DNA from: Paraphysomonas bandaiensis
Taxonomy: Eukaryota; Protista; Chrysophyceae
DNA: 64,000 nucleotides
Direction of reading: 5' to 3'
Assembly (NCBI GenBank): GCA_965644295.1
Contig: CBFFRP010000407.1
Span: forward strand, 122,246-186,245
A model generated the notes under the pieces. The model searched no databases and had not been told where the DNA came from. It worked only from the letters and a program-made list of their open reading frames with translations. The position numbers and the translations under genes are program-made. Positions 14,079 to 64,000 of this stretch are shown here, piece after piece. Positions within the stretch are counted from its first letter, which is position 1. Every line of letters starts with the position of its first letter.

Positions 14079-14537
14079 CAGGGCCTGCTAACCGTTAATG
14101 GCTCATTAATGGTAGTCCAGTTCCCGGCAATTATAATGGCATTAATGAAATATGTCCCGGCAATTATAATGGCCATTAATAGCTACTAACTTAAAGTAGA
14201 TAATACCGCTCATAATAATAGATAGTACAGTGCACCCTTAATTTCTAATTTTAAAATAAATAGCATACTACGAATTGTAACTACTTCTCGCTCTCTACTG
14301 GCACATCAGGATCTTCATGGAGGGTATAAGCATCCCACATCATGTAATTGGCTCGTAGGATAGCAACGATTCTAGATAATATATATTCATGTTTCATATT
14401 ATCTTAAAAATACTCGGCTCTATATATAGAGCAGTACAGGCCATTAATGGTAGTCCGGTTACCGGCAATTATAATGGAATTAACGACAAATCTCCGGCAA
14501 ATATAATGGCATTACCATTAACGGTTACCAGGCCCTG
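14079..14537. mobile_element. hAT-derived MITE
   Basis: TIRs CAGGGCCTGCTAACCGTTAATGG ... CCATTAACGGTTACCAGGCCCTG, subterminal CCGGCAATTATAATGG repeats, and internal sequence matching the transposase 3' end at 30929. Confidence 0.9.
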
Positions 14538-22865: not shown

Positions 22866-25800
22866 ACACTCGAATATACGCCGTTGATACATTTGGTGAG
22901 TTACTCATCAATTATTGGAGCATAGATCGCCACTCCTATTCGATTTCTATTCTGAAACTATTGCAGCAGCAATACTGATTGCTACGACAGCATCACTACT
23001 ATGGCCATTACACCACGTACCTAATGAGCAATACACATATACTACATTAAAAGTAACAAGTGTTAAATAATATAATTATTATTTTCCACGAGCAATTGAT
23101 TAAGTGTAACTATTTTTCGTCCACATGATTAGTCCGACAGATAGATTTGCAAATCCTACCAAACACGATAATCATATCAGATGTACCCTCTGCGAGACCT
23201 CACGACCTAAATAGCTTACCTAGAGATATAAAAGAATGAGATACACTCGAATATACGCCGTTGATACATTTGGTGAGTTACTCATCAATTATTGGAGCAT
23301 AGATCGCCACTCCTATTCGATTTCTATTCTGAAACTATTGCAGCAGCAATACTGATTGCTACGACAGCACCACTACTATGGCCATTACACCACGTACCTA
23401 ATGAGCAATACACATATACTACATTAAAAGTAACAAGTGTTAAATAATATAATTATTATTTTCCACGAGCAATTGATTAAGTGTAACTATTTTTCGTCCA
23501 CATGATTAGTCCGACAGATAGATTTGCAAATCCTACCAAACACGATAATCATATCAGATGTACCCTCTGCGAGACCTCACGACCTAAATAGCTTACCTAG
23601 AGATATAAATGAATGAGATACACTCGAATATACGCCGTTGATACATTTGGTGAGTTACTCATCAATTATTGGAGCATAGATCGCCACTCCTATTCGATTT
23701 CTATTCTGAAACTATTGCAGCAGCAATACTGATTGCTACGACAGCACCACTACTATGGCCATTACACCACGTACCTAATGAGCAATACACATATACTACA
23801 TTAAAAGTAACAAGTGTTAAATAATATAATTATTATTTTCCACGAGCAATTGATTAGGTGTAACTATTTTTCGTCCACATGATTAGTCCGACAGATAGAT
23901 TTGCAAATCCTACCAAACACGATAATCATATCAGATGTACCCTCTGCGAGACCTCACGACCTAAATAGCTTACCTAGAGATATAAATGAATGAGATACAC
24001 TCGAATATACGCCGTTGATACATTTGGTGAGTTACTCATCAATTATTGGAGCATAGATCGCCACTCCTATTCGATTTCTATTCTGAAACTATTGCAGCAG
24101 CAATACTGATTGCTACGACAGCATCACTACTATGGCCATTACACCACATACCTAATGAGCAATACACATATACTACATTAAAAGTAACAATGTTAAATAA
24201 TATAATTATTATTTTCCACGAGCAATTGATTAAGTGTAACTATTTTTCGTCCACATGATTAGTCCGACAGATAGATTTGCAAATCCTACCAAACACGATA
24301 ATCATATCAGATGTACCCTCTGCGAGACCTCACGACCTAAATAGCTTACCTAGAGATATAAATGAATGAGATACACTCGAATATACGCCGTTGATACATT
24401 TGGTGAGTTACTCATCAATTATTGGAGCATAGATCGCCACTCCTATTCGATTTCTATTCTGAAACTATTGCAGCAGCAATACTGACTGCTACGACAGCAC
24501 CACTACTATGGCCATTACACCACGTACCTAATGAGCAATACACATATACTACATTAAAAGTAACAATGTTAAATAATATAATTATTATTTTCCACGAGCA
24601 ATTGATTAAGTGTAACTATTTTTCGTCCACATGATTAGTCCGACAGATAGATTTGCAAATCCTACCAAACACGATAATCATATCAGATGTACCCTCTGCG
24701 AGACCTCACGACCTAAATAGCTTACCTAGAGATATAAATGAATGAGATACACTCGAATATACGCCGTTGATACATTTGGTGAGTTACTCATCAATTATTG
24801 GAGCATAGATCGCCACTCCTATTCGATTTCTATTCTGAAACTATTGCAGCAGCAATACTGATTGCTACGACAGCATCACTACTATGGCCATTACACCACG
24901 TACCTAATGAGCAATACACATATACTACATTAAAAGTAACAATGTTAAATAATATAATTATTATTTTCCACGAGCAATTGATTAAGTGTAACTATTTTTC
25001 GTCCACATGATTAGTCCGACAGATAGATTTGCAAATCCTACCAAACACGATAATCATATCAAATGTACCCTCTGCGAGACCTCACGACCTAAATAGCTTA
25101 CCTAGAGATATAAATGAATGAGATACACTCGAATATACGCCGTTGATACATTTGGTGAGTTACTCATCAATTATTGGAGCATAGATCGCCACTCCTATTC
25201 GATTTCTATTCTGAAACTATTGCAGCAGCAATACTGACTGCTACGACAGCATCACTACTATGGCCATTACACCACGTACCTAATGAGCAATACACATATA
25301 CTACATTAAAAGTAACAAGTGTTAAATAATATAATTATTATTTTCCACGAGCAATTGATTAAGTGTAACTATTTTTCGTCCACATGATTAGTCCGACAGA
25401 TAGATTTGCAAATCCTACCAAACACGATAATCATATCAAATGTACCCTCTGCGAGACCTCACGACCTAAATAGCTTACCTAGAGATATAAATGAATGAGA
25501 TACACTCGAATATACGCCGTTGATACATTTGGTGAGTTACTCATCAATTATTGGAGCATAGATCGCCACTCCTATTCGATTTCTATTCTGAAACTATTGC
25601 AGCAGCAATACTGACTGCTACGACAGCATCACTACTATGGCCATTACACCACGTACCTAATGAGCAATACACATATACTACATTAAAAGTAACAAGTGTT
25701 AAATAATATAATTATTATTTTCCACGAGCAATTGATTAAGTGTAACTATTTTTCGTCCACATGATTAGTCCGACAGATAGATTTGCAAATCCTACCAAAC

Positions 25801-26632
25801 ACGATAATCATATCAGATGTACCCTCTGCGAGACCTCACGACCTAAATAGCTTACCTAGAGATATAAATGAATGAGATACACTCGAATATACGCCGTTGA
25901 TACATTTGGTGAGTTACTCATCAATTATTGGAGCATAGATCGCCACTCCTATTCGATTTCTATTCTGAAACTATTGCAGCAGCAATACTGATTGCTACGA
26001 CAGCATCACTACTATGGCCATTACACCACGTACCTAATGAGCAATACACATATACTACATTAAAAGTAACAAGTGTTAAATAATATAATTATTATTTTCC
26101 ACGAGCAATTGATTAAGTGTAACTATTTTTCGTCCACATGATTAGTCCGACAGATAGATTTGCAAATCCTACCAAACACGATAATCATATCAGATGTACC
26201 CTCTGCGAGACCTCACGACCTAAATAGCTTACCTAGAGATATAAATGAATGAGATACACTCGAATATACGCCGTTAATACATTTGGTGAGTTACTCATCA
26301 ATTATTGGAGCATAGATCGCCAATCCTATTCGATTTCTATTCTGAAACTATTGCAGCAGCAATACTGATTGCTACGACAGCACCACTACTATGGCCATTA
26401 CACCACGTACCTAATGAGCAATACACATATACTACATTAAAAGTAACAAGTGTTAAATAATATAATTATTATTTTCCACGAGCAATTGATTAAGTGTAAC
26501 TATTTTTCGTCCACATGATTAGTCCGACAGATAGATTTGCAAATCCTACCAAACACGATAATCATATCAGATGTACCCTCTGCGAGACCTCACGACCTAA
26601 ATAGCTTACCTAGAGATATAAATGAATGAGAT
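22866..26632. repeat. Tandem array of exactly 10 units of 376-377 bp
   Basis: Unit starts ACACTCGAATATACG at 22866, 23243, 23620, 23997, 24373, 24749, 25125, 25502, 25879 and 26256; only a few substitutions separate the units. Confidence 0.98.
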
Positions 26633-30736: not shown

Positions 30737-31508
30737 TAGGGCCTGGTAACCATTAATTGTAGTCCAGTTCCCGGCAAATATAATGGCATTAATAAAATAT
30801 GCCCCGGCAATTATAATGGCATAACCATTAATGGCCATTAATATCTAAGTAGATAATGCCGCTCAGAATAGATACTGTAGTGCTCCTTTAATTACTAATT
30901 TAGTAAAATAACATACTACAAATTGTAATTACTTTTCGCTCTCCACTGGCACATCAGGATCTTCTTGCAGGGCTTCATGGAGAGCATAAGCATCCCACAA
31001 CATGTCATCGGCCCGTAGGAGTAGCAACGATTCTAGACTATATGGAGTCATATTTCTACGCTCAGGTGTAATAATCAACTTTGTATGACTAAAGAGCCTC
31101 TCAACAACATTAGATTTTAGACTTTGCTTCGATATGAAACAAGCAGCGGTTGTAGGACTCATAGGTACCAAGTCGAGCTCTCTTGGTGACCTCGGCGCTA
31201 TCCAGAGCACGATTTACAAAATCAGCTCCTTAACTTTTGTCGTGATTGCTGTTGGATGAGAGCAAACTGTCATTCATAAGCATCTTTAGATCTTTCAGCA
31301 AGGGATGCCAGTGTTATCGCTGAGAAAACAAAATAGCTGTGGAATTGCATGAACATTGTTTAGAATTCACTTAGTTCTAAATATATATCATATATCAAGT
31401 GCCAATACATGCCACTAATGGCCCTTTAAGGATAGTCGAGTTTCCAGCAATTATAATGGCAATAATGAAAAGTATCCAGGCATTACCATATACGGTTTCC
31501 AGGTCCTG
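30737..31508 (-). mobile_element. hAT internal-deletion derivative retaining the dimerisation-domain fragment
   Basis: TIRs TAGGGCCTGGTAACC / GGTTTCCAGGTCCTG, 8-bp TSD TGTTGCGT/TGTTGCAT. ORF 30929-31210 contains SNVVERLFS..PERRNMTP.SLESLLLL. Confidence 0.9.
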
Positions 31509-32432: not shown

Positions 32433-34610
32433 ATGGGAGCGGCGATTAGCTGCTGTGATCATTGGTATGAAGAGGGTGTGGTGGACGAGAGGGTTCATAG
32501 TGTCGCCTGTGTTGTTCAATCACCTCACAGAGACTCACACTCTGACAGAGATCAGTTCGCTCTATTGTCGAGCCGGAGCGCATCATCCTCTCTGACTGGT
32601 TCCATCAAACATGCGGCATTATCTCATATGTACCGACAAGTAGGAGTACTTAACAATGAAGCTCATATATACGGCAAGGGAGCCCCTGATGTGGACACTG
32701 ACGACTGTGCTGTGTATGAACACACACGAGAGCGAGAGCTATGCACGGACTGTGCAAAACCTAAACAATCTGAATACGGATATAGATCGAAACGACCAAA
32801 CCTACAAGTAATTGTATCAGATGGTCTCGACGAAGAGAAGCCGGATAGCCAACAACTTGTGATACAAGATATGACCATAAGTGAGGTTGGCATGAAAGTC
32901 AACAGCTTGAATGGTGTCAATTCGACACCCCATTCCTTCATTGAGGATGGCAGGAGCGATTTTATTTACATAGGACCATTAGGAACAGGTGTTGATATTG
33001 CGTTTTTTGTGTAGTGTTGACGTATACTTATTCACAGGATCATCTGGTAGCGTTATAGAGGCCCTCCATGTGCCTACCTTAACCTTGGTTGCTCTCAAAA
33101 TGTTACCGATACACAACGATCAAGAGGTGTCGAGGATATCACGAGAACTTCACGTGCTTCGTCAAAACGTAGCACAGCTTCGAATTTTGACTGGATCCTT
33201 TAAAAAAAATACTCCTAAGAGTGACACCACCAATATGTCAGGATGCACAGATGGCGAAGAAGATTTTGACTGTATCGATGAGTTTGATCGAAATATGGAA
33301 GAGGAGTTAGAGGAGTCTGATATTATTTGCCCGTGCCCACATCTACTGGCTATGTATGATGGTAGGTGTTTCTAGGAAGTACTTCTTTGAATGCTTTTCA
33401 CTACAGTGCATTACTTGATATTCTACCCAGTCAATATCGTATGTGATATTTTGACATAGTGTATCTTTACCACCTTTGTTGCGATGGTTGTTGACATTAT
33501 CGCAGCCTTCTTGGATGGCTCCACCGGTATGGTCAACATTGCCTTAGAATATATGGATGGTGGCTCTCTTCAGGATTTAGTAAATTCTGGAGGATGCAGT
33601 GACGAAGCTGTACTGACAGACATTACGTACCAGATGTTGCGGGGTCTGGAATATTTGCATAGCCATGGTCGAATGCATCGGTAAGTGTGTTTTGATTTAG
33701 AGTGAGCATTACATGTTGCGCTGAATTCGTCTAATTTGTGTCTATAGGGATATTAAACCTGGAAATATTCTTTTGAACAGTAGAGGTCAAGTTAAACTTG
33801 CAGACTTTGGGATATCAACGGCATTTGAAAATTCAGAACCAGATAAGAGTTATGTTGGAGCCATACATTACATGGTAAGTAGTACAGTGCAACTGGTTAG
33901 TATTTTTTTTAATGTAATATATATTGTGGAGCGTTTCTCACTGCTTGTCGTAGGCTCCCGAGCGTATTATGAATGTGCAATATGGTACCGCCAGCGAAAT
34001 ATGGTCCTTGGGCATGACCATATTAGCAGTCTGTTGTGGAAGATATCCCTTGAACACTTCTGAACAAAAACTTCCATCTGACTATTGGGAGCTTCTTCGA
34101 CTAATATGTGATGAGCCACCACCTCTATCGGATACATTGCTTTCAGCTAGTTTCAGCGATATTATACGAAGATGCCTGAGTAAGTCCCCAAATGATAGAC
34201 CTTCGGCGAGAGATCTGTTAAACGAGACGCATTTCAAACATAGAAAACTATGTCGCAGTGTCACGTCATCATCATTCATCTCTTTACGATCTCAGGTCAT
34301 TACCTCCGATAACTTGTTAGGAAATACATCGGATAGTACCGACAGTGTTTTGAATGGTGATGTTGCATACAAAGTAGAGGACATGCGCTCACACCACCTA
34401 GACGCAGTACTTAATAAACTCCGAGCTGCACGTAGCCGAGAGCTTCTTCTCGACCCACTAGGTGAAAGTCAAATGGAAAAACACAATTGTCATAATATTC
34501 CAAGTTTTGAATCCGAATTTGATAAATGGGAACATTTTGCCCATGAGCTCCGATTGCCTGTGAGTGTCGTTATTAAAAAAGCTAAGGTACAATTATTCTC
34601 ATCGAATTAG
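32433..34610 (+). CDS. MAP kinase kinase (STE7-like) Ser/Thr kinase; multi-exon
   Basis: LGTGSSGSV, VALKML, IALEYMDGGSLQDL, HRDIKPGNILLNSRGQVKLADFG, YMAPER, SEIWSLG, RPSARDLL, assembled across GT-AG introns. Confidence 0.9.
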
Positions 34611-34985
34611 TAGTAAAGTATTTGTTTTTAAATGGGGCGTTGTATATCCTCTCTATACTGTTTTGTAGTCATATACTCTTTCTATATTTGAATGTTTCAT
34701 TTGTGTGCATTAGTACTGGTATTTACAGGAATGAAATTTGTTGCATACATGTTTTTGTCCATAATCTGATTTTGTAATAATGAGATTTTGGATTTGCACC
34801 CTTAGTATGCAGTTGTAAGAACATAATAATAATGTCTGGTTATATCAGGTTAAGATGAGCTAGGACAATATGCCCCAGTATTTCATTAATACTGAGGGCG
34901 AGTATAATACCTAAAATCTGAGTTGGTTTCGAGACAAATAACTCGAAATTTAGTGATCAATCGAAATTGTAGCTCTACTCCCCAC

Positions 34986-35894
34986 CAGAGCCTGGTAACC
35001 GTTAATGGTAATGGAAGTCATTGTAATGCCATTATAATTGCCAGGAGGAACTGGGTACCCATCTTTACAATATGCGGGTAAAGGGTAAATAACATTAAAC
35101 ATTAAACTGCATCCTTATCTTTGCGGATGAAGTTTCCCTAACAAGTTGGAAGATAAAATTCTTACTCCAGTTAACGTTAGAGAGATGAAAAAATTACAGA
35201 GTGTTACGCTTGCTGGAACCAATTCGTATCAAGTACGCCAGCTATTTCATATTCAGCTACAAAATTTTCAGGGCTGCATCCATACCTTTCCCCGAGTGCA
35301 AGGATTTTTTACCAGTGTAAATTTTGAGAAGGAAGTAGCTAAAATTCAATGGGACAATGAAGAGAAGAGTTAACAGGCAAAAAGAGATCCATCCATTGCT
35401 GTTAGTGCATCCAACATAAATAGCGACGACAAAAATGATTAAACTGATTTCGAACAGCGTGTTCTGAACAGCGCCGAGGACACCAGAGAGCTCCACTTAG
35501 TCCCTATATGAGCCCAACTACCGCAACATGCATCATATCGAAGCAAAGTCTAAAATCTAATGTTGTTGAGTGGATCTTTTGGCGTGCTAAATTGATTATG
35601 ACACCTGAGCGTAGAAACATATCGTTTAGAATCATTGCTATTCCTACAAGCCGATTACATGTTGAGGGATGATTATTGCTTATGCCCTCCATGAAGCCCA
35701 GAAAGAAGATCCCGATGTGCCAGTGGAGAGCAAAGAGAATGATGATGTGTTGTTACGATTCTTATACTAAATTTGTATTTAAGGGCGTACCACACTATCT
35801 ATTATGAGCGGTATTATCTATTTTTCATTAATTCAATCACAACTTCCGGGAACTGGGCTATCATTAATGGACCATTAATGGTTACCAGGCCCGG
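34986..35894 (+). mobile_element. Degenerate hAT derivative, same family
   Basis: TIRs CAGAGCCTGGTAACCGTTAATGG / CCATTAATGGTTACCAGGCCCGG; EDPDVPVES-coding segment at ~35706. Confidence 0.85.
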
Positions 35895-43407: not shown

Positions 43408-46400
43408 ATGAAAGTCTGATTATTACATGAGTACGGTTGCGTACAGAAACTAGTTTATGTCTATAGATTAGCTAATAACTAGATTTGCTATATACTACTA
43501 GTGGCGGGCAACCGTCTCGGGACTGCTGGTGCATCGCTGCGAGCACCATGGTGCAACCGTCCCTTGTAGTGAGGTTAGTCGGGGGGTCTACCTTTGGGCA
43601 ATGTGTCTGGCGGGCCTGTGCCATGGATTATGTGGGGGGTGGGTGAGGCGAGATGTATATATGAGAGTGCAAGTCGGTGGTGGAGATGGTGCTGGTTGTT
43701 GAGGTGGGGTTTCGGCTACAAGTAAGGAGAAGTTGTTTCCGGAGTGGTTCCGCTTGCCTCTGTCGGGTCTGGTCTCTTGCAGAGAGTGTAGTTCGTGGGG
43801 TGGATGTCTCCTGGAGTAGCTGGAGTACTTTTGGTGTCGGGTGGGTATCCTGGGGCTGGCGTTGCTTTGCGTGTGTCGGGACCGGTGTTGCCGGTGCCGT
43901 GTCTACGTTGTGGTATCTGTGTCCCCTATTGCGAAGCATGCGGAGCCCTCCATCATATAGGGGGAGTAGGATAGAGGCGATGGATTTTTCTAGTGTGTGG
44001 AATTGATGTTCGAGCAGTGAGCTGGATATGTGGCGTCCGAATGCGTCGGCCATTTGTGTGGCAGTAATGTGGCCGGTCCAGTAGCGCTCAACCTGGGGGG
44101 TGGTTGGGTTCCATGCGGCTTTGGCTAGTTTGGTTATGGCGGTGTAAAACCAGGGATGGGGGAGCGTGCGTGTGCGAAGTTTGTCAAGCTTATTGTGGTG
44201 TGCTTGGTGGACATCTTCACGTATGTGAATGATGTCAGGGTGAGTGCAGGTGAGAAGCATGTGCGCCATCATGTTGTCTGTGGGGTGTGCACAGTCTGCG
44301 CATGTGGAAGCCGTTGTGCGATCATGTCCGGATTTTCCTTTGGCTCGGTTTCTACCCATTGCAAAGGATTTGTCCCATACGTATGCCGTCTCGCGTATAC
44401 GCTCTGCGAGGGGGTGTAGTGTTTGGAGGAGTTATGGGTACGGAGGGGATGGAGCTTGTGTGGGAGCCTTCTTGTTCCGCTGCGTCGTGTCCAATACTGC
44501 GGGTCTCGTTGCGTTTGTGCTGCATACATGCTATCTCGTCGGAGGGTGTATTGATGGAGGTCCCACTGGTGGTGGAGATCTGTAACAACGTCTCCTAGCA
44601 TAGGACCGAGGTCTGTGAGGAGGTGTGTATCGTATCTACGCCAGTGCCATTGACCCGTGGTGAAGAATTCTTCCAGTATGTGCGTAGCGTCAGTTGTGAC
44701 AACACTGTAGTTGGAGGCTCCGAGCACTTTGTCTAGTGTCTACCAGTCGCCGCTGGCGGCGGCGTCAGCTATATAAATGCCGTGGTCAGTGTAGGTCCAG
44801 TTGCTTTGATCTTGTGTTCTACGTTCGGGGCGCGAGCGCGTCCATTGTATTGGACGCTGTTTAAGAGCTGTGGTGACGAGGCATTCGTAAAATATTCCCT
44901 TGGGCTTTGTTCCGAGGGCGCGCCGTCTGTGTGAGAGGGCCTCTTTGGTCCGCGTCTGTACCGTCTGGCAGTCAGTCCAGATTGGCACGGAAGAGTGGAG
45001 TACATTGGAGAATGTTAGTGTTGCTGACATTGCAAGGGTTTCGTAGGTGTATGCGTTGAGGCCAGGCGCTGTGTGCTGTGGCTGGTGCCGTAAGTTGTAG
45101 GGTTTTGGTTTGTCTGTGACCGCAGGTGTTCTTCTTGGGCGGGAGCCATACAATTGCAGCAGCTCCTCCGTCGTGAGAATTGGGCTGTGTGTGGGTGTTG
45201 CCGAGTAGGTGAGCAGGGGTGAGGTGTGTGCGTGTGAAGGATCCATCCGTGAAGATGGCTTTTTGTAAGCATATTTGTGATCATTGTACAGTTGTAGCTG
45301 TGATTGGACTTTGTCAATGGTAGCTCGGAATTGTGGCGTAGCTGGGGAGGGAGGTTGTATTCTGATGCCTAAAGTAAACATTATGCAAACGTGGGAATTT
45401 TACGATATTTTGGGAAATTTAGGAGTATTTACAGTATTTAAGTAGAAAATGTTAAAGAAACAATTCTATTTGTGGTATTAGGGTTAGAGACAACAAAAAA
45501 TATTAATTTTATTATAATTTTAAGTCTCATAGGATGTAACAGAAGCGCCTTTTTGCTTACCAGCAACCACGTTATACGTTCCCCCTTGTGTGACTCCTCT
45601 CTCCGCGGAGAATCCCATGTCAGGGTGCTGGATAAAGGAGCCATCTGAGCCAAGAAGCAGTTCTTCGAGTGATCGGGGATCGATGTTGTCGGCCATGTGT
45701 GGGGTCCAGATGAAGGTGCGACCCCCATCGTCGAGGTCGCTTAGCCATTTGATAGTGTCATCGGGGACACCAAGTCTTGCCCATGCTTTGAGAAGATTGG
45801 GTGCGATGGAGTCGAAGGCCTTTTGACAGTCCCAGAAGGTGCAGAGTTTCACATGCCCGGTAAGTTTGGCCAGTTCCGTGGCCACGAGGACTCGTAGAAT
45901 GGCCGTGTCCGTGCCGTGTCGCCATCGATAGCCGTGTTGCGCAGGGTGCAGTACTTCATCTTCTTCCCATATGTGGAGGAGCCGGTGGGTGATGATACGG
46001 GTCATTGTTTTGCGCAAAACCTCTAGGAGCCCTATCGCTCGGAGGTTCTTCAGAGACGTGTGTCCTGGTTTTTTAAGAAGTGGCGTCATGACTCTGTCTC
46101 TCCACCAGCGTGGCACATGGCGATGGGTCCAGAGGGTTTGGAGGAGGCCTAAAACTTCAATCTTTATTTCAGGGGTCCATTTCTTTATCATGTTGGTGGT
46201 GACCATGGATGGCCCGGGCGCTTTATCCTTGGCCATCCCGTCCAGAGTGGAGTGGAACTCGCTTATTGTGATCTGCTGTCATAGAGCGTCTTGGATCTTT
46301 TTAGCTGTGGCGGAGGTAACCTTTGTTTTGCATAGGTTTCGTAGGCCAAGCTGGTGGTGATCGGGAATGGCGGAGTGTGGATGCCAGGGTGTGTTCATGT

Positions 46401-48170
46401 CGGCGCCAGCTGCGAGCTCGTGCCACCAGGTGTCGTCATGATGTAGCTTGTGGGCGACTGGATCAAGTCCGGATGGGATGGAGTGGTGGGCTGTGAAATG
46501 TTTGTTCTCAGCTCGTCCTGTATGTCTATGGGGAGGGTTTTAGGGTGGCTCCGTCCTCTAGGGTGAGTCGGGTGAGGGGCGGCGTCTGTTTGCGCTTCAA
46601 TCCTATTGTCTGAAGGACTTTTCCGATGTGTTGGAGTTCCAGGTGGGCTTGGATGGTGTGGGTCCTGTGGGTCATACGCTTCCGCATTTCTGTTCTTGCT
46701 CTTCCTTGGAGCATTCGGGTAAGGTTATCCCGTAGGGTGTCAAACTGTGTGCTATTGATGGTCGCAACAGTCCATGTCAAACTGTGTGCTATTGATGGTC
46801 GCAACAGTCCATGTCAGTATCTGGCGTGGATCCACGGCAGGCTTGATGATGGTGGTGGGTGGGTGGGATGGGTCCTCTGAAGCGTGGTCCAGGGCGGCTA
46901 TATGGTGACCTCCCATCGCTGGAGGCCTCTTCGTGTAAGACTGTAGAGACGTGTGTCATCTACATGAGGGTGGAGATAGCCGGCTCTGTTGAAAAACTTT
47001 CTCTTTAGGTAGATGACTAAGTGGAGCGCTGTTTGAATAACTCTCATTTCCGCAGAAAAGCCGTCTTTGAAGCGGGAACGTTTGCGTTGGCAGAGGTGGT
47101 GAATGCGTGTTTTCTTCGTTCTATCTGCGCTACGTGTGTCGTGAGCCGCGTCGATGGTGATGCGATGGATTAGTGCTATTTTAGTGGCGGCGCGGTCGGC
47201 AGGGTGTGGGTGTGCCGAGGGCTCCGGGAGGGATTGATGATGTGTGCTGAGATGCTGTTGGTATTCCTCCACCATTTCCTGATCGGCGGGATTGATGTTA
47301 AGCCTTGGCAGGATCTGAAGGTGTTGCTCCTTCGGCAGGGGGGGTCCTGTTCCACTGATGCAGAAGTCGGTCCAAACCGGTCTGTGGTCAAAGGTTGCTG
47401 CCGTGAGGGCGCCCGAGGTGTAGCACCCGTTGCCAGAAATTTGTATGTATATGTGGGAAGAGGTGTATGTAGAATGTGGTCTATTCTGGAGATTCCGCGG
47501 TCTTTCCGGAAGAAGGTGAAGTACGGGTCCTCAGTGTTTAGGGTCTGTATGAGGGGCTGTAAGTTGGAGGGATGTTGCTATTCCACGTAGGTCTCGCTTT
47601 CCAGCATGGCCCTCGAGAGAGGCATTGAAGTCACCGCCTACAAGGACTGTGTGACCGTTGGCCCTGGCTTTAACAATCCATTTTGTAAGGATGTTCGTGA
47701 GGATGGAATACGGTCGTCAGGCACCATTTTTGGGCGTCGCTTTTCCAAAGGCTCGTAGTGATGCCCACAGCGTGCACGGGACAGCAGTCGCAGGTTTAGG
47801 GGGTAGGTATGCTCCTATTATGGTGAGTCGGTCGTCGATGTCTGGTCTGCCAGTGTGAAATTCGATGCGAGATATGAGGCCGAGGCCCGTACAGTCAGAA
47901 TTGGTATATTGGATGCGCCCTTTCCATGTTTCACTTATCACCGCGAGGGCGCCCCCCATGTGTGGGTCAGTGGGTCCGAGCTTCGGTTTCGTGTTAAGAA
48001 AGCAGCATACGAGAACACCTGGGATCTGGTCCTGTATATAGTCGTCTAGGTAGGCTGCTTGTCTTTGTGAGAGCCGTACGTCTAGGAGGTAAAGGCAATC
48101 TAGACTTTGAGAGCGAAAGTAGTGGAGTATGGCCTCTATTTTTCCGGGGTTGCTGGAAGGGTTGCTACTA
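43408..48170 (-). mobile_element. LINE family B, degraded ORF2 (APE endonuclease - RT - RNase H - Zn knuckle) plus 3' UTR
   Basis: APE: LDCLYLLDVRL, IIGAYLPP, LVGGDFNA. RT: KAPGPS, LRAIGLLEVLRK, QHGYR, FWDCQKAFDSI, RGVTQG. RNase H: WTRSRPERR..IYIADAAA. Knuckle: CADC..HMLLTC. Many frameshifts. Confidence 0.93.
46738..46811. repeat. 37-bp perfect tandem duplication inside LINE-B
   Basis: TGTCAAACTGTGTGCTATTGATGGTCGCAACAGTCCA occurs twice in tandem. Confidence 0.95.
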
Positions 48171-49444
48171 CAGATAAATATTATCAGATCTTAGTTAAAC
48201 ACGATCATATACAGTTAAAGTATTTCCGTTTCTCTAATCTTATTCATATCACATCATACAACAGTCAAAATTCGAATTCCTTAAATACAGCTTTTAATTG
48301 CTTAAAAATAAGCAAACTTAACAGAAGTAGTAATCTTAATCGAACATTTATCGATTACTCACAAAATACTATTACTAAATAAAACTTTTGTACATTAGTA
48401 TTTTTTATGAAGCCATTTTTGTAGTCATACATAATAACAGAGACATTTTAAGATGAAGGGTTAATGCAGTATACGTTATTAATAAAGGCTTATTAAATAT
48501 ATTAATAGCTGTCTATGAAGGCTGTCTACTGTTTACAACAGTACATTACTGGTTAGTTGAAGTACAATTAATTATTGTTTGGTCCACCCGCTAGAACCCA
48601 AATATACTCTTATTGTCGTTAAAGTTAATCGCTAGAGTACTATACACTATCAGCACCGTCAGTACTCATACCACAACAAATACCATCCCTATCAGTTCAG
48701 TTCTATCACTGCATTGATATACATGGAAGATTGCTGCTATCGCAAAAGATAATAGTCCTCAACCACTCGTTATGAACAATCAGGCATGAGATGGCAGTGG
48801 TCATCTGCTTGCTTCCATCTATGGAATGCTGAATGGAACTAACGGGTTCTAGTGGCAGCAAGACGAGCTGAGCTAACCACATGACTAGATGTGATCTGAG
48901 CATATACACACAAGCATAAGGAGGACACACTGCAGTGTTCTGCTCGACAATTCACATACTCGAAGTTTAATAGAGCGAGATGAAGTCAACAAAGATGAAG
49001 TAAGTAAGTTGATCCAGGTAGAAAAATATATGGTATTTTGATATATAAAACCCCAAAAATACTGTTTTTCGTAAAGTCGATTACCGATTTTTTGTACAGT
49101 ATATGGTGAGTTGTGGACTGTCTCTCAACTATACAGATCAGTATACTGCTGTATATCTGTATATGTATCTATATGAGAGCAGATGAGTGCATGTGACTAT
49201 GCATTGATCGATGAGGACAGTGCACAACACATACACCAATCGAGGCCCCTGATAGGCATTATATCGTTAAAGAGTGCTGAATTGTACGATATTATTGTGT
49301 AGTCAGACTCTGGTCATTAACTTCCTTCATAGCAGATAGATTATAGCGGTGCAGAGCTGTGTTTAGAATCGAGTTAAAATTGAGTCCAAACACGAAATTT
49401 CCGAAAAGAGTGCCGCTGAGAACGCGGCTCCTCATTACGCCGTG

Positions 49445-54863: not shown

Positions 54864-56540
54864 ATTGAAAGTCTTATTATTAGCAAGAGGCGTTAAAAAC
54901 CTGCACCAACTTAGTAGCTAGGTGAATGCTAGACAAACTAGTTAGACCTCTACCTAGTACACACATTTTTATCCTACTATTTAAGACTACGGAAGCTGCT
55001 TGTGAGTCGCCGCAAGCACCAAGGTGCAACCACTTCCGCTCTGAGTTCTTAAGGTGAACATCCCCGATGCTTAACTTCAGCAGGCAGCTCAATACCCCGG
55101 TTACCCTTCAGGTGGGCTCATTCCCGGATGTCTGTTTACTCGTCAGGGCCCAAAGACGTCTACACAAGTGACACTACTTATTGGTGTCCCTTGTACAACA
55201 CAAGCATTCGGCTATGAGTGGGCAGAAGAATATCTGCTATAACTATGTTTGCGGCTTACGTTAGTTTTCCAGAGAAATCTCTCCTGTACTTATTCTCCAG
55301 AACATCACGAATATTGAATGTCTTTTTATTTAGCAATAGGCGTTAAAAACCCGTTCCGATATAGCGGCTAGTTGAATACTAGTCTACTAGTTAGACCTCT
55401 ACCCATAACTAATCAGCGCAAATTCTATTATCCTACTATTTAACGCTACAGAAGCTGCTTGTGCGTCGCCGCAAGCACCAAGGTGCAACCACTTCCGTTC
55501 TTGATGTTGTGTGTGAGTTCGCCCTGCTCGTGTGTCTGAGGACTCACTGGCGCGTGTTGTCCGGGGGTCTCCCCTTGGGATACGGTTCCGCCTGACTCTG
55601 AGGTACCGGGTTCTGTATTAAGGTCCTGAGTGTACCGAGTACTAGATGTGTGGACTGAGAGGTTGATGGTGTGGTGGAATGTGGCGGTGTCGCCATGCAC
55701 CGTTTGGGCGTTGGGCATAGGTGGAGTTGCCGGAGACGTCGTCGCCTTTGTCTAGGGCCTGTTGGTTTCATACGGTCCGTTGCTATGGTCCTCTGTGTAT
55801 GGTTGGTAGGGTTCAGAGGTACGGTGGGCGGTGTTCCAGTCTCGGTTCGTCTGTGGATTCCTAGTAATCTTAGCACCCTTGGGCGTTTCCGTTTCTGTCT
55901 GTGGTTTGGACTCGGCCGCGGTAGTAGCCTTGGGGGGCCTTTCCGTAGGGTCACGTATCTTCTTCCGCGATCTCGGATCATGAGCTTTGCTGCAGCGAAC
56001 AGCGGTAGCAGTAAGTTGATGATCGCTGATTCGATGCTGCGCAGTCCTTGGGATGTCAGTGATTCATGGATGTGATCTCCAAAAACCATTTCAAGCTGTG
56101 TCATTGTGATGGTACCCGTCCAGAATCTCTCCACCTGTGGCACGGAAGGGTTCCAGGCCCTGCTGGAGAGTCGCTGGAGTACAGTGGTGGTCCATTGGGG
56201 TAATTCCGGATTCCTCATTTCTTCTAGGAGCGCGTTTTTGTGGCTGTGAAATGCAGACTCCCTTATCTGCGTTATGGTGTCGTTTGTGCAGTCTAGACAC
56301 ATATGCTTGAGTGAGTCTAGTCTAAATCCGCAGTCAGAGCATACGGCTTTAGCCATGTCGAGTCCGTGTTTGGTTTTCGCCCGGTTTCTTCCTATGCTGA
56401 AGGATTTGTCCCATGTCAGTGCTGCATTTAGTACTCTTTGGCGCAGGTGGGAGCTCACTTTGTCCTTTGATGGTCCACCATCTGCTTGCGCCAGTTTGCG
56501 CAACATCACGAAAAGGTGAGAGTCCGGCTTTGTTGAGGGA
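54864..56540 (-). mobile_element. SINE-like copy split by a LINE-A insertion
   Basis: Body at 54864-55311 and head at 56502-56540; joined, they are colinear with 2931-3400. Confidence 0.88.
55312..56501 (-). mobile_element. 5'-truncated LINE family A with 11-bp TSD
   Basis: ORF 55544-56509 is a paralogue of 8343-9190. Flanked by the direct repeat AACATCACGAA (55301-55311 and 56502-56512). Confidence 0.92.
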
Positions 56541-57204: not shown

Positions 57205-58682
57205 TTAGAGCTTGGTTGGTAAGGTGGAAGGTTGGCTGTGGTTAGTATCACCATTTGACGGATAATCCTTCCGGGAATGCACACCACCTGACGAGAAGCA
57301 TGAGTACACAGCTTACACCATGCTATTCCACAATAACATATACACACACTCCAGAGCAATCGCGAATCTAAATTAGGTTATTTACCATGAGATTCACGAA
57401 CTCTCGACCGAGATTTCGGAAGACTGGTAGCATCCTCAATTCGCTGCCACAGAGCAGAATTCAGAAAATAGCCTTCAACCTCGTTAGACACGCTCCAGGG
57501 TGAGTCCTGTTGTGCACGACAAGTTCCCCGGGAAGTATTAGGTACACATCCAATATTTTGTTCACTGCGTGTCATAGATGGCGGACCACTGGTATGATTT
57601 GACCATTCAATGGACTTCGCAGAACCCGGTACATAAGTGCCTCCCGGAAGATTGTGAGGTGCAGACGGTGAAACTGGAATCCACTGCCAATAGCCCCCCA
57701 CTGCGTCCTCACCGCTCTCATTCGAATTAGATTCCTGATGCTTCAAGGTTTTAGGCGTTGAGGATGTTCCAAGTCCATTTAAAGTGCTGTCTTTTGTAAG
57801 CGCAGCTGCAATCTCTTCTCGTATGGCATCGGACTTTACAGCAACAGGCAGAGAGCCCATATTGCGAAAGCCAGTTCGTTTTTTTCCACGAGCAGCCTTC
57901 GACGGTTTCGATGCTGTGTCACTGGAAGAAGCCGGACGTTTCGTACCACGATACTCACCACTCTCCGTACTGCTGACACCCAAGCCGGTTGTCTGGCCAT
58001 CCGAAGATTCGCACCCATAGATATCAGACCAGTAACCACGCTGTTTGGGCCTTCCATTTTCACGACAGCCGATTACACTTGTAGTGTTTAACATTGTGTG
58101 CGGTTGATCTCTAACCATAGGGGCGTCTGTGGAAGGTGGCTTGATATCACGGTCACGCGAAGACGTGGGTATTGTGGGTGGAACTCGACGTGTTAACGCC
58201 AGCATTGAAGCCTCTTGCGTGGAATCAACCAACCCACTCATACAAGCAGAAGGGTTTTGTTGTAACTCTTTATCATTTGTCGACTGACGCTTCGATCCGT
58301 CAAGGTATTCTTGAACGCCTAAAGCTGGCTGCTGTTGTACTTTGTTGTCAGCCTCTAATGAAACCGCTTCCTCTTTAACACTGACGTGACTCTTACTTCC
58401 CCTTCGACGAGAAGAGTTCTCATCATGTATGGCTTTATGATTAGAGCGATAATTAGGTGGAGGAGGAGTAGCAGATATGAATACTAAGGGATGAGGTAAG
58501 GCTCTTAATGACTCCGCCTCTTTAATAATACTCGAATGATAATCACTCGCATAGGAGCTCACTGTCTCTCCAATCACATCAGGTTTATTCTGTTTGATTG
58601 AAAGAAGAGATGAGACTATACTAGAGAATGTAGCATCAGCATCAACAGATGATTGTGTGGTGTTACGACTGATATCACTCAT
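57205..58682 (-). CDS. Hypothetical low-complexity (Ser-rich, likely disordered) protein
   Basis: 434-aa ORF. A likely intron from ~57384 to 57289 adds a short last exon ending ..LPTKL*. Confidence 0.65.
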
Positions 58683-59399
58683 GTTTCAGTGTTCATAACA
58701 AGGCACCCGTTAAAGGGCAATACTCTATAGATAAGATGAAAAGAATCAGTTCATTGATACTGATAATGAACTGGATGGGGATTGATTTACTCTTGCTAGG
58801 CTATAGGTCTGCAGGAGGTGTGACAGTATGATGTATACTTCCTCATATAATCATATGAGAAGGTGTCCGTCTATATTGTCATATGCGTCACACACACGCA
58901 TTTAAGTCGAAGTTATCAATGTACGGTGTTCAAAATACAGTGATTTCTACAAGAATTCTGGTATGAAAGTATCAGCTGTACTACAGCTCTCCCGGTGTGT
59001 TCAAATTCTGGTGGCATACTACCAAATCTTACCGTAAACATACACACTGATGCGTCATCAATAAAACTGAAAATAACGTATTTTTTAGAGATATGCGTTT
59101 GGACTGACATGTCCATACAGAGTTTGTACAGCAGTATAGAGTATGAGGGCACATCTGCATGCAATCTTATCATCTTGATAGGTCCATATCATGACATAGC
59201 TACTCAATAGATCTACTTGAAATGATGCAGTTAATTTGATGGATGATGTCATCTTTTAGAGAGTCTGTAATCTCAGTGTGGAAATATGCTTTCAATCTAA
59301 TATATCTTCACACTACTGCAGTCATATACCTGGATATACAGTTGAATACCCCAAAGCAGAAATATATCCACTATATAGCAAAATCTTGATAACTTCACT

Positions 59400-61360
59400 A
59401 TAAACACTGAATCACATCCTTTCTAGATTCAAACTTCCATTCGAACCAAATTTTAAATTCAAAACCAACAACAGTAGGTAAATCAAACTGATTCATTGAA
59501 CTTCATCCCTTTCAAAGTTCTAAGAAGAACTATGAAACCATCTTACCACTTTCAACAACACAACTTCAAAGAAAACTTTGATGTTCTCAAACTGTTCACT
59601 CACTCGCAGACATTAATTATTGAAATACCTCAGCATAACAATCGCAACTTTTCGTAAACAAGTTGATATGTTTAACCCTTCACTCTCACTGCAACTTGTT
59701 AACTTGCTAGCCTTTGGTAGTATAAATCAACTTCATTTCGTTTAGGCAATAGATTGAACAACGGCTGAATAATATCTTGAATAAGATATTGGTTAATTTG
59801 CCCAACTCAAGATTGAACTCACAACACACTTCAACACCATTATTTTCGAGAATAACACATCATTATCAAGTGTATAACAATATGATATAAATAAATAAAA
59901 CATGATGAATATTGCATTATAATAAATTGTCTTGAAATAAAACATGCTCGCTGGAATTGGAAATAGAATTATAGAAAGTACAAAGGCGGACCTGGCCCAT
60001 GTTCCTCAATTGGCACCAGCTTTTGCATCAAGAGTTGCAATTTCTTGTCCTTCACAAGCAACTGACAAACAGCACATGCTGCATACTGCTTCGACAAGAA
60101 AACCAAACAATCTCTCATAAGTTTTCCCGTAACAGAATGATACCTTAACAGCATCAAAGAATTCAACACTGCATTAGATACTGAAAAAGGTACGACTGAC
60201 ATGCGCTCGAATACATCGGTAGCATCATCGGCAGTAGTCTCTTTTCCAAAGAAAATTGGAACATCATTCTCAGCATCAATAACATCATCTTGAATAACTA
60301 CTTGGAAATCAACAACCGAATCAAACGTTTCAAGTGAATTATTAGACGGCACACCATACTGCACAACTGAATCAACTAAATCACTGACAACTTTCTGCAC
60401 CGCATAACACTCATTATCAGTAAACTCCGAATCCTCACTGGCAATATCAGTAGACAACTCCTTAATTTCACCATCCACCTCAACAACAACAATTGCATCA
60501 CTGATAACAACATCTCGCACTGACACAACAGACTCAAGCTTAGTAAAATTAGAATCCACAACGCCAACACTTAATGACTGCTGCACTGGTATTTCTGACA
60601 ACTGATCAACTTGTATAATTTCTGAACGAGCTCTCGATGACCTTCCAGATCTCCTTTGATTGATTTCCTCAAGACTTCGTAGAACATACTCATTGAACAC
60701 CTGCTGCTCATGAAAACGCTGTTCCATATACTCACGTTGCTCACGCATATACTGCATCAAGTCTTCCAGAGTTAGCTCTGTCTTCGCATCTCCTTCTGCA
60801 GGCTCCATGACTCTTAGAACAGTTCAAAGGGCTCAATAACACAATAAATGTTCTTATCAACTAGTAATATTACTGTAGTTGTTCTTAAGAACAACGTATG
60901 CTCAAGCAAAAACAACACTGATCTACAACGTTTTAAAAAGATTTTAAGTGCACGCCAGCGGGCTGCTACACTGTTGAACTCACCAGCGGGTGATGTTCCT
61001 CAACTCAGACGCAAACCGCGAAAGAATTTAAATAAATCGTTATTTAAAACGTGTAATAGAAAAGTGAGTAACATGCTATACAACTCTACAGTAACACACA
61101 CATACAACATCATGTTCAGCATTTCACTTCAGCACACAACACACCAGATCAGAAGTATTTTATCCGGTACGTATGTACAGCTTCAACACTCCGTGTATAC
61201 ACTGAAAGAGTAGAAACTGAATATGTAACTGAAAACTGAAAATACAAAAACACTCTGTACGTGTTAGAGAGTACAACAGAAGAGTAACATATAATACTAC
61301 TACCAACGCAGAAAATAACCAGTACTGCGTTACACTGCTTTAAACCTGCACAGGTTTACA
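59400..61360 (-). mobile_element. LTR-retrotransposon-like fragment (candidate LTR 60973-61360, gag-like ORF)
   Basis: On the minus strand it begins TGTAAA at the junction with viral DNA, with a candidate LTR end TCAACA at 60973. A 279-aa ORF with N-terminal coiled coil follows. No pol or partner LTR seen; the left boundary is a guess. Confidence 0.5.
59969..60808 (-). CDS. Gag-like/hypothetical ORF of the LTR-like element
   Basis: Intronless 279-aa ORF: coiled-coil N-terminus followed by an acidic, Val-rich tract. Confidence 0.45.
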   Translation of the reverse strand: MEPAEGDAKTELTLEDLMQYMREQREYMEQRFHEQQVFNEYVLRSLEEINQRRSGRSSRARSEIIQVDQLSEIPVQQSLSVGVVDSNFTKLESVVSVRDVVISDAIVVVEVDGEIKELSTDIASEDSEFTDNECYAVQKVVSDLVDSVVQYGVPSNNSLETFDSVVDFQVVIQDDVIDAENDVPIFFGKETTADDATDVFERMSVVPFSVSNAVLNSLMLLRYHSVTGKLMRDCLVFLSKQYAACAVCQLLVKDKKLQLLMQKLVPIEEHGPGPPLYFL

Positions 61361-61572
61361 CACCTAATAAAGCCTCTATTATTACCTCTGTCCCTGTTGA
61401 TGTTAATGCAGGATCCATTATTAATTATAAAAACATTAATAATATTAAGAGCTTAGTACATGATATACATAATATAAATACTTTACATGTCCAATTATTA
61501 GACCAAGACGCAGATGTATTGGAATTAAACGGTTTACATTGGTCTTTAAATTTATTATTAACTATTGAATAA
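61361..61572 (+). pseudogene. C-terminal fragment of PLV minor capsid (penton) protein
   Basis: Reads PNKASIITSVPVDVNAGSIINYKN...LHVQLLDQDADVLELNGLHWSLNLLLTIE*, matching the penton-type ending DQxxxxxxLNGxxWSxxL. No start codon; the 5' part is cut off. Confidence 0.78.
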
Positions 61573-61602
61573 AAAATATTTCTCTCAATATAGTATATAT
61601 AC
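61571..61602 (+). promoter_or_regulatory. Candidate viral promoter motif AAAAAATATTT-N7-TATAGTATAT
   Basis: Lies just before ATG 61603 and is repeated with identical spacing before ATG 62092. Confidence 0.65.
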
Positions 61603-62043
61603 ATGTCAAAACTAGGCAAAAAGCTAAATCGTAAATTTCGCAAACTAGGACGCAAGGCCGATCACAGAATACATAAACTAGGACAAAAAACACACGACGT
61701 ATTAGACAAGGTCCAACATGGAGTAAATAAAGGACTTGATAAATCAGCAAAGGCAATTGATGTAGCAGATAAAATATTAGGCGTTGGCGATAAAACTATA
61801 CACGCTATTAATAAAGCAGGATTAAATACAATGCCCGTTGTTGGATCAGCATCTAGACTATTGGAAGCAGGATTACACGAAGGACATAAAGGCGTACATA
61901 AGCTACATAAGCTACATAATAAAGCCGATAAACACAGTAAAAAGGCATTTAAAAAGGCTCATAACGCAGGTAATAAATTAGAAAAACACAACACAAGAAA
62001 AGCTTTAGCTAAGTTAACACAAGATGATAGCACATTTATATAA
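61603..62043 (+). CDS. Lys/His-rich basic viral protein (putative core protein)
   Basis: 146-aa intact ORF between penton and MCP, with KLG repeats and a central apolar/amphipathic segment. Confidence 0.75.
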   Translation: MSKLGKKLNRKFRKLGRKADHRIHKLGQKTHDVLDKVQHGVNKGLDKSAKAIDVADKILGVGDKTIHAINKAGLNTMPVVGSASRLLEAGLHEGHKGVHKLHKLHNKADKHSKKAFKKAHNAGNKLEKHNTRKALAKLTQDDSTFI

Positions 62044-62063
62044 ATTATATTTTATTATACTAT

Positions 62064-62091
62064 AAAAAATATTTATCTATTTATAGTATAT
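62064..62091 (+). promoter_or_regulatory. Second copy of the candidate viral promoter motif
   Basis: AAAAAATATTTATCTATTTATAGTATAT directly abuts the MCP ATG. Confidence 0.65.
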
Positions 62092-63450
62092 ATGTCAGGA
62101 TTACCAAAAAACGTATTATATACAAATAATATAAATTCAAGTTATGCGCGTAATTATCAGAATAATATAGCTCCACAAAATGGTTTGGGGCCATATGGTC
62201 CAGGAGAAACAATAATTATTAATATTCCTACCGGTCGTAATCTCGTAATGTCTGGTGCTGATTCACTTTTAAAATTAAGCTTGATTGCTAAAAATTCAGC
62301 GGGAGCTGCTGCCGAGTTTATCAGACTAGATAAGGCCGGTATTCATTCCCTAATTTCTAGAGTGCGAGTATTTCATGGCTCTACTTTACTTTCAGATATC
62401 CAAAATTATAATAATCTAGTTGGTCAGTTAATGGCTTTGCAACAGTCAAACGACGCATATACGAATAAGCATTCAATATTAACAGGTACAGAGGCGCAAA
62501 ATGTTTTGCATTCAACTTTAGTTTATTCAAGAAATATAACGGTTGGTGAAAGTTTAGGTAATTATGCAACAGTTGCAGCTGATAGTAGCACGACTAAAAG
62601 ATATTATACAATACCAATAATGAATTTTTTAAGCTACAGTGACAAATATATACCACTTTTTGCAATGACTGGCGCCCCTTTGCGTCTAGAAATAGTTCTG
62701 GTTAATAATGCCTTAGAGGGTCTAAATTGTGCTAGGGCATTGGATGCAACCAACCCTATAATAGTTAATGATGTTGAATATATTTGTAATTTTATGGAGC
62801 TATCAGATGATGCAATGGGTACAATTAATAAGGCTTCAAATGGTGGACCTATAAAATGGGTTGTGCAAGATTATAGAAATTTTTCACATACTGGAAATAT
62901 TGCTCCCAACGTTGAGCTTTCAATACCCGTACCTGCAAAATTCAACTCGTTGCGGTCTCTCTTTTTTAGTATGCGTAGCAAGCATGCTGGTGCAGTTACT
63001 TTTTTCCCTCTGTCTTCAAATCACTTCGGCTTGGATTCATATACTGTTAGATTAGGTAGTAAAACAGTACCAACTAAAGCACCTAGTACCACACCTGAAT
63101 TTTTCGGCGAATTGATCAGAGCTATTGGTAGCGTGAGTGATCTAAACCATGAACCAAGTATTAATATCCATAGTTATAACGTCCAGGATCCAGTTGCAAG
63201 CACCGAAACAGTAGCCGATGCAACGGGTCTTTCGTCATCTTCCAATTTTTACCTGGGTCTAGACCTAGAAAGTTATAGCAGCTCAGGCATGGAAACAGTA
63301 TACCAGGGTTATAATTCTAGCACTGATGATATCTTTTTTAACCCTCGTTTTAGCTCATCCGCTAGTACTGTGACCGCACGCATAGATACATACGCTTATT
63401 TTGATCAAGTCATTTTAATTGAAAACGGTTTTGCAACATTGCAATATTAA
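62092..63450 (+). CDS. Polinton-like virus major capsid protein (double jelly-roll)
   Basis: 452 aa and beta-rich, with PLV-MCP-like motifs: IAPQNG.GPY..GETIIINIPT, IHSLISRVRVFHGSTLLSDIQNYNNL, KYIPLFAM..APLRLEI, IPVPAKFNSLRSLF, FYLGLDLESY, RIDTYAYFDQVILIENG. Confidence 0.9.
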   Translation: MSGLPKNVLYTNNINSSYARNYQNNIAPQNGLGPYGPGETIIINIPTGRNLVMSGADSLLKLSLIAKNSAGAAAEFIRLDKAGIHSLISRVRVFHGSTLLSDIQNYNNLVGQLMALQQSNDAYTNKHSILTGTEAQNVLHSTLVYSRNITVGESLGNYATVAADSSTTKRYYTIPIMNFLSYSDKYIPLFAMTGAPLRLEIVLVNNALEGLNCARALDATNPIIVNDVEYICNFMELSDDAMGTINKASNGGPIKWVVQDYRNFSHTGNIAPNVELSIPVPAKFNSLRSLFFSMRSKHAGAVTFFPLSSNHFGLDSYTVRLGSKTVPTKAPSTTPEFFGELIRAIGSVSDLNHEPSINIHSYNVQDPVASTETVADATGLSSSSNFYLGLDLESYSSSGMETVYQGYNSSTDDIFFNPRFSSSASTVTARIDTYAYFDQVILIENGFATLQY

Positions 63451-63533
63451 ATTTATAAAAAACCTTTAGATTTTTAAAAAAATAAAAAATTAAAAAATTT
63501 ATTATTTAAAAAATAATATATATTTGTATATTA

Positions 63534-63662
63534 ATGAGTACAAAAGAGAGTTTTGAAGAGTTTGATTTAGAACACCTTGATAACCTGACTTATGAACAGT
63601 CCAAAGCTTACGTAACAAATTATTTTTTCCCACTTACAAACGGCGCACATGCACTCATATGA
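63534..63662 (+). pseudogene. Truncated N-terminus of a probable PLV SF3/D5-like helicase
   Basis: MSTKESFEEFDLEHLDNLTYEQSKAYVTNYFFPLTNGAHALI*. The K.Y.T.YF.PL.NG.HA pattern recalls PLV helicase N-termini (from memory). The stop codon coincides with the TG that starts the next element. Confidence 0.5.
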
Positions 63663-64000
63663 CACAGCCAGGTTTGATAACCAAGGCTGTGCAGCAGAAA
63701 CAAACACAATGAGTTAACCAGAGCTATATGTACGTCTGATTGCAGGAGAACAGGATGATTATTACTCTAAACAGTATGTCAAGCGTTGCAAGCTTGTACT
63801 AGTGACTCCCTCCAAGAATCACCGCGCAAACCCCACCTCCAGTGAAGTCAGAACACTAGTGTACAAACAGAACAACACTTAACAAAACACTGAGCTGTAA
63901 AGCAATGCAACATAGAACAAGCACAACACACCACACTCGCGATGACACCACACACCACACTCGCCAGTTTGTAAATTAGCCGTTGAATACTGCGTATTCA
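63660..64000. mobile_element. LTR-like insertion running off the window edge
   Basis: Starts with TG at the point where the viral ORF ends. Composition switches to CA-rich, like 60850-61360, with short ACACCACACTCGC repeats. Confidence 0.45.

Follow-up and report, generated by a model that had tools for sequence, protein, structure and literature searches.

A Polinton-like virus fragment with a whole major capsid protein gene in Paraphysomonas bandaiensis DNA

According to the available text of one survey, 462 protist genomes contain more than 35,000 matches to viral major capsid proteins (MCPs), and endogenous Polinton-like viruses (PLVs) run to tens of thousands; a single genome carries many copies that are not identical, and Ty3/Gypsy elements occur inside PLVs or close to them (PMC10120064). 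PLVs and virophages interrupted by retroelements have also been described already (PMC12220804, PMC8547959). The window analyzed here, a stretch of 64,000 nucleotides from a Paraphysomonas bandaiensis contig, carries near its right end a block that resembles these endogenous protist PLVs, as far as that text describes them, in its double jelly-roll (DJR) MCP with a penton and a helicase nearby, in a GC content below that of the host, in the existence of many non-identical copies, and in having retrotransposons near or inside (PMC10120064). However, endogenous protist PLVs are given there as typically 15–30 kb, whereas the copy in the window spans 2.3 kb and comes without ATPase, integrase, or terminal inverted repeats. 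The features of the block and its flanks are as follows.

60575..60808, minus strand: N-terminal ~78 codons of a 524–538-aa ORF, likely a retrotransposon gag (from cluster homology and position behind the LTR)
60849..61334, minus strand: high-copy repeat, likely a retrotransposon 5' LTR (from TG...CA ends and contig depth)
61360..61572, plus strand: 3' end of a penton (minor capsid) gene, 70 codons and stop, the 5' 70% gone (from homology)
61603..62043, plus strand: basic protein, whole, 146 aa (from homologues between penton and MCP)
62092..63450, plus strand: DJR MCP, whole, 452 aa (from a structure model, structural matches, and 367 homologues)
63534..63659, plus strand: 5' end of an SF3/D5-like helicase gene, 41 codons, ~92% gone, with a stop supplied by the junction (from homology to protein P0136)
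63660..64000, no strand assigned: non-viral DNA right of the cut, 44% GC, starting with TG

The block is a PLV-type virus piece embedded in eukaryotic DNA. The initial annotation had called it an endogenous PLV at 61361–63659, and this call stands, along with the DJR MCP, penton, and helicase identities behind it; the limits it gave agree within 1–2 bases with the breaks in homology (61360 and 63656–63659), and all four coding pieces are, as it said, intronless and co-oriented on the plus strand, collinear with their homologues. Its count of four ORFs is right for coding pieces, but the whole genes are two, the other pieces being a penton 3' stub and a helicase 5' stub. The AT-richness it noted is likewise real: GC is 33.4% against 40.8% in the rest of the window, a value as low being reached by 3 of 591 equally long windows upstream of the 61361–63659 block. 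The contrast is modest, though, as the first 2 kb of the window equals the PLV block in AT-richness. At third codon positions, GC is 0.25 and 0.23 for the two complete viral genes versus 0.35–0.44 in four host exons. Host genes nearby are indeed interrupted by GT-AG introns: the intron-split eukaryotic genes around the block encode a kinase (GT-AG intron at ~33878–33953), a guanine-deaminase-like amidohydrolase, a B-box protein, and a bL25/TL5 ribosomal protein, the gene of which lies in several pieces. The compactness of this gene layout, the bL25 gene, of a kind that animals are not known to have, and the marine source of the environmental runs containing the stretch together suggest a protist host.

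The surrounding DNA is also rich in repeats. Positions 22866–26632 hold ten head-to-tail copies of an AT-rich 377-base unit, 99% alike, which may represent a satellite or an amplification of recent date; an Rfam scan of the window, this array included, gave no match. A GC-rich (49–54%) broken non-LTR retrotransposon lies at ~43600–48200 on the minus strand, with an RVT_1 match at 45523–46278 and, upstream of it, a piece that looks endonuclease-like by eye; related 3' pieces occur at ~7500–9400 and ~54900–56500. Nested, near-perfect inverted repeats of 86 and 47 bases at 2140–2528 are MITE-like, and another repeat family with inverted copies is found at ~14100–14540, 30750–31500, and 34980–35800. 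An intronless, Ser-rich ORF of 434 aa at 57378–58682 (minus strand) had no match in Pfam or the viral loci.

The MCP gene carries most of the identification. Its 452-aa frame is uninterrupted across 62092–63450, as initially annotated, an outcome with a chance of ~3e-16 at this base composition. Structure prediction followed by Foldseek, the check proposed with that annotation, gave a double jelly-roll with no non-capsid protein among the matches listed. The model, built from 120 aligned homologues, was of high quality (pLDDT 91.9, pTM 0.89); every match listed against the PDB was a DJR capsid, with those of PBCV-1 and an iridovirus at the top (E 4e-18), and a search of a viral structure library with the same model likewise returned DJR capsids among the matches listed. 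The best structural alignment was to a PBCV-1 capsid chain (Z 27.9, rmsd 3.0, 335 residues, 12% identity), while the mavirus and Sputnik MCPs aligned with Z 17.5 and 19.1 at 8–10% identity, below the PBCV-1 score. The sequence gave a weak Pfam match to Capsid_N (E 0.014) and none to the virophage MCP families at E 0.1; an Atlas search with the MCP placed at rank 16 a cluster with Sputnik families on 29% of its members.

Sequence relatives of the MCP are numerous in metagenomes: 367 of 7,992 candidates matched at E ≤ 0.001, and a profile search returned 2,653 representatives (50% clustering), 313 of them at E 1e-30. The closest relatives are one full-length protein at 80% identity and one partial protein that is 98% identical over 261 residues. 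In a quick tree of 80 rows (short search, neither bootstrap nor outgroup), the window MCP paired with P0001 (support 100) within a 30-row clade (support 98) that takes in the closest metagenomic loci. An IMG/VR single-protein scan with the MCP gave no match, although alignment-based scans did find relatives; a PDB sequence search and a phage collection yielded no match, and short capsid motifs had no match in the supplements of the publications searched.

The three other coding pieces were assigned by homology. The stretch at 61360–61572 has no start codon and encodes the C-terminal 70 residues of a 243–255-aa protein, being 65–73% identical to residues 174–255 of the proteins encoded upstream of the MCP in the closest relatives; homologues are present in 83 of 104 related loci. 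Its identity as a penton, the single jelly-roll minor capsid protein, comes from the full-length homologue from locus L002 (71% identical to the stub over 70 residues), for which structural matches included capsid chains of PBCV-1, the mavirus penton, Sputnik, and adenovirus at Z 10.6–15.8 (PBCV-1 15.8 and 14.4, mavirus penton 12.3, Sputnik 11.5, compared to 6.8 for the best unrelated chain) and for which a BFVD search listed minor capsid proteins. The 146-aa protein that follows is strongly basic (34 K+R, 13 H, pI 10.4), and homologues 34–52% identical occupy the same place between penton and MCP in 9 of 104 loci. Pfam and Atlas gave it no convincing match, with Atlas scores all under 0.9; from its charge and position, it is likely a putative DNA-binding or DNA-condensing core protein. 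The last piece, at 63534–63659, ends after 42 codons, and 40 of 41 residues are identical to residues 1–41 of P0136, a 505-aa protein with a Pfam match to DUF5906 (E 2e-14) and a weak one to Pox_D5, which upholds the helicase assignment. Helicase homology stops at 63656, and the remaining parts of P0136 are nowhere in the 64-kb window; an IMG/VR single-protein scan with P0136 gave no match. A helicase immediately 3' of the MCP was found in none of the 88 related loci having a downstream ORF, and the adjacency seen in the window could itself be a rearrangement. Replication modules of such viruses are often swapped, as stated in the available part of one report (10.64898/2026.10.13.758929), which would explain why the helicase sits in such an unusual place.

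The complete relatives indicate how much of the element is gone. MCP relatives at 32–80% identity reside in compact contigs, the complete ones ~16–20 kb in length, and inverted ends of 99–135 bases bound ~16–18 kb in 5 of 16 loci examined; one 20-kb relative contig has a direct terminal repeat. The window retains ~2.3 kb, about one eighth of a complete relative's genome. An A32 packaging ATPase is encoded in 86 of 104 related loci and is missing from the window; in the closest relatives it lies upstream of the penton gene, i.e., on the side that is cut away here. Other relatives' genes, by Pfam, include an rve integrase (L009, L011, L046), SF3 or other helicases, a lipase, and nucleases. The rve integrases of L009 (12069–13154) and L046 (15002–16060) have a C-terminal chromodomain. 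Two proteins of 694–695 aa that are 46% identical (L004:155–2239 and L046:12157–14244) show by eye what we take to be divergent family B polymerase-like motifs, and neither had a Pfam match. When 1,466 ORFs of the 104 related loci were compared with the window, matches were confined to 61360–63653; 14 ATPase, integrase, polymerase-like, lipase-like, and post-MCP queries had no match in the window at E 0.1, and no inverted ends were present in 58700–64000. An integrase, a length of 14–40 kb, and terminal inverted repeats, the traits of a complete mobile PLV, are thus lacking in the 2.3-kb copy, in a window that ends at 64000. Close relatives of the capsid gene at L006:5324–7771 and in L012 lie beside kinase genes in higher-GC DNA, and these copies are for that reason likely also integrated in eukaryotic genomes.

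Copies of the same family are widespread in public sequencing data. Part of the stretch is contained in 20 of 24 listed public runs from 14 studies, and at least half of its words in 13; the runs containing it are environmental and marine. Contigs of four runs (X1, X4, X5, and X15, the last being RNA) were compared with the interval 59500–63480 only. All three non-RNA runs contained short variant contigs at 90–100% identity over all 30 bins. Among the differences listed between copies, 9 of 13 in the MCP gene were synonymous versus 23% expected (P 5e-4, with 227 further rows outside the test), as were all 3 listed for the basic gene; the pattern reflects purifying selection between members of the family and not at the window locus. 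One 698-base contig of X4 matches 61360–61712 and continues into 345 bases foreign to the window, which implies that a copy without the left junction exists. One-base deletions at 61685, 62106, and 62625, each in 3–6 contigs of X1, suggest other decayed copies, or could be amplification or assembly errors. Overall, the virus family has likely been active recently, the window locus being one of its broken copies.

Both flanks point to other mobile elements. The LTR-like repeat, whose end at 60849 was set by eye, stops 25 bases short of the point where the PLV fragment is cut on its left side. In X1, summed contig depth was 29,000–61,000 in the repeat bins versus 300–4,000 in the PLV bins, and in both X1 and X4 the repeat was covered at least 10-fold more deeply than the PLV part, depth not being equivalent to copy number. 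Contigs of X4, X5, and X15 depart from the window at 61336 into polypurine-tract-like sequence (minus strand). Behind the repeat, the gag-like ORF is 74–90% identical to the N-terminus of a 19-member cluster, with the match limited to the first 78–96 residues; it is severed near 60588 and joined there to other DNA, and the X4 and X5 contigs depart at this same position. The full protein of this family had no match in Pfam, gag families included, or in the PDB, and it is the position behind the LTR that earns it the gag label. With neither a second LTR nor pol in the window, the left flank likely fits a truncated LTR retrotransposon, as judged from sequence features. The 25–26 bases at 61335–61360 belong neither to the LTR-like repeat nor to the penton stub; they contain an 8-base inverted repeat, end as the LTR does (TTACA), and are possibly the tip of another element. 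To the right of the cut, the 341 bases of 63660–64000 matched neither the left repeat, nor the rest of the window, nor the 104 loci, and are possibly the end of a second, different repeat. That a single element had captured the fragment as cargo, between its two LTRs, was rejected, as the two flanks share no sequence.

These observations are probably best explained by the recent insertion of a full PLV, after which a retroelement disrupted the penton gene, another event disrupted the helicase gene, and the left arm was lost. A virus of 16–19 kb with inverted ends would have entered a protist chromosome by means of its own rve or tyrosine-recombinase integrase, both of which are encoded by complete relatives. 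An LTR element would then have inserted into the penton gene, with a second insertion or a rearrangement in the helicase after codon 41, and a deletion on the left side may have taken the ATPase side together with most of the retroelement. Alone, the remaining piece is incapable of packaging, copying, or excising itself. The MCP gene would be open because the insertion is young, selection having acted on the virus family during replication, and the host population likely harbors intact siblings elsewhere, which would probably replicate with giant-virus help, as some cultured PLVs do. This bears on the initial proposal that the element is "recently integrated or still-selected": recency is plausible for the family, given its near-identical copies in many runs, while selection at the locus does not follow. 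With ~2.3 kb kept out of 16–19 kb, the penton and helicase genes truncated, and the window devoid of a packaging ATPase, an integrase, and terminal inverted repeats, continued selection here is unsupported, and the open MCP is no sign of it, since a young insertion would look alike without selection. The fragment itself is likely dead, a leftover of an integrated virus of a common type.

The arrangement at the cuts is that of this assembly: no contig among those listed from the four runs bridges the left junction (61334–61361), and the right junction lies beyond the compared interval. It is conceivable that multi-copy PLV and retroelement pieces were joined by the assembler or by amplification, and that the real copy is longer. 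All parts involved occur in multiple copies, short variant contigs number in the thousands (3,933 in X1), the left junction is unbridged among the contigs listed, and partial elements are often assembly products according to the available text of two studies (PMC10120064, PMC8547959). However, the ten copies of the 377-base array were resolved with small differences between them and the MCP gene is free of frameshifts, which would fit accurate long reads, and both cuts adjoin TG/CA ends. Such ends are typical of insertions. We consider an assembly chimera unlikely on this evidence.

Alternatively, the virus may be interrupted rather than finished, with the helicase remainder and the right arm beyond the window and rescue in trans by intact copies. 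Only 341 bases separate the right cut from the end of the window, and nested retroelements of 4–9.5 kb have been described in PLVs (PMC12220804, available part). Nevertheless, the 61 kb on the left contain no further viral gene, the ATPase side and the left end are lost from the locus regardless, and excision would presumably be impossible without both ends, so that this reading appears quite improbable.

A role for the remnant in the host is harder still to reconcile with the data. If domesticated, the basic protein and MCP would have been kept and expressed, e.g., to disturb capsid assembly of incoming viruses. Both whole genes do retain a common 32-base upstream element (61569–61600 and 62062–62093, 87.5% alike), and they adjoin a transcribed repeat: in the RNA run X15, bins of the LTR-like repeat are covered, while most of the PLV is without cover, which does not prove silence. 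On the MCP gene, however, X15 offers a single divergent 89-base piece (9 mismatches, depth 3.5), the LTR is oriented away from the viral genes, and codon GC is still virus-like; moreover, the MCP shares 98% identity with a metagenomic copy across 261 residues, which leaves no time for a selection signal. Domestication is accordingly very unlikely. Finally, an origin from a giant virus or from a true virophage can practically be dismissed: capsids of PBCV-1 and other Nucleocytoviricota are the best structural matches, and Capsid_N matched weakly, but identity to Nucleocytoviricota capsids is just 9–13%, the sequence relatives sit in compact contigs, and the virophage MCP families are unmatched, with the mavirus and Sputnik MCPs ranking lower.

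A (T)ATCT motif is positioned 14–19 bases before the ATG across the PLV family (loci L009–L104) and is a candidate promoter. Eight motifs were tried, after ATCT had been noticed by eye. In the more distant groups, ATCT lay 10–24 bases ahead of the start codon in 114 of 435 upstream regions and in 56 of 248, versus 33 and 17 in shuffles, and in the closest group in 10 of 63 versus 4.8, which is inside the shuffle range; before 36 MCP genes (<70% identical), it was found 9 times against 3.0 in dinucleotide shuffles (maximum 8 in 300). A TCTA late promoter is common to mavirus and CroV, according to the available text of PMC8547959, and the TATCT motif of the family resembles it but differs from it. 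Identity with the mavirus/CroV promoter was rejected, as exact TCTA was not enriched before MCP genes (2 of 36 versus 3.1 expected). Our literature search found nothing tying ATCT to a giant-virus late promoter and a virophage, and for PLVs with a TCTA promoter motif it found only PMC8547959. For helper dependence, the motif offers a lead and does not count as evidence. One could speculate, with considerable reservation, that this is a separate lineage of marine PLVs, young and still active, marked by the basic gene before the MCP and the SF3 helicase right after it, with TATCT read by a giant virus's late transcription machinery and intact copies providing an inducible defence of the virophage kind, for which the helper virus could be predicted. 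A family-wide upstream motif, if real, would help predict that helper.

Among described groups, the relatives of the window MCP share several gene-content traits with Gossevirus (GKS1), which is linked to stramenopiles and, in the available text of its descriptions (PMC7805220; 10.64898/2026.06.19.733378), has a lipase, rve or recombinase-like integrases, variable replication genes, and a single MCP per genome, as do these relatives. In contrast, most Gosseviruses have a cysteine protease in their core (PMC7805220; 10.64898/2026.06.19.733378), and a Pfam scan for proteases found 0 among 120 ORFs of the relatives (15 + 105; 203 ORFs were listed from 15 loci); one Gossevirus cluster is, however, likewise without this protease (PMC7805220, available part). 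As far as gene content goes, the relatives are compatible with Gosseviruses. The Trimcap group has three divergent MCP genes; the relatives show one MCP per locus with the profile of the window MCP, a count that could miss divergent extras; split genes and one inverted duplication are the exceptions, and no neighbor of the MCP in the close relatives is an MCP-sized capsid by any match.

Two further systems offer parallels. EMALE virophages of Cafeteria burkhardae are also AT-rich integrated DJR viruses hit by retroelements, with about one in four interrupted and an AT-flanked short promoter motif before genes, as described in the available text (PMC8547959). They differ in belonging to Maveriviricetes with a different MCP, in being mostly full length, unlike the window copy, and in their interrupter, a tyrosine-recombinase Ngaro element (PMC8547959), whereas the one in the window looks like an LTR element. 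PgVV/Gezel-14T and the Tetraselmis PLVs share the PLV gene set and serve as the model for dependence on giant viruses (10.1101/2022.07.28.501842; 10.1101/2025.10.09.676808, available parts); on the PgVV/Gezel-14T model, a putative helper dependence may extend to the family of the window PLV, although the PgVV early motif AAAATTGA is not enriched here (0 of 63, 1 of 248, and 1 of 435 upstream regions). With endogenous PLVs this numerous and retroelement interruption already described, the locus alone matters little. It does illustrate that a whole MCP gene is no guarantee of a whole element, a point of consequence for surveys based on counts of MCP genes. Set beside these known systems, the window copy is broken and belongs to a large family that has been sampled before, and it ties one subclade of marine PLVs to the genome of a eukaryotic host.
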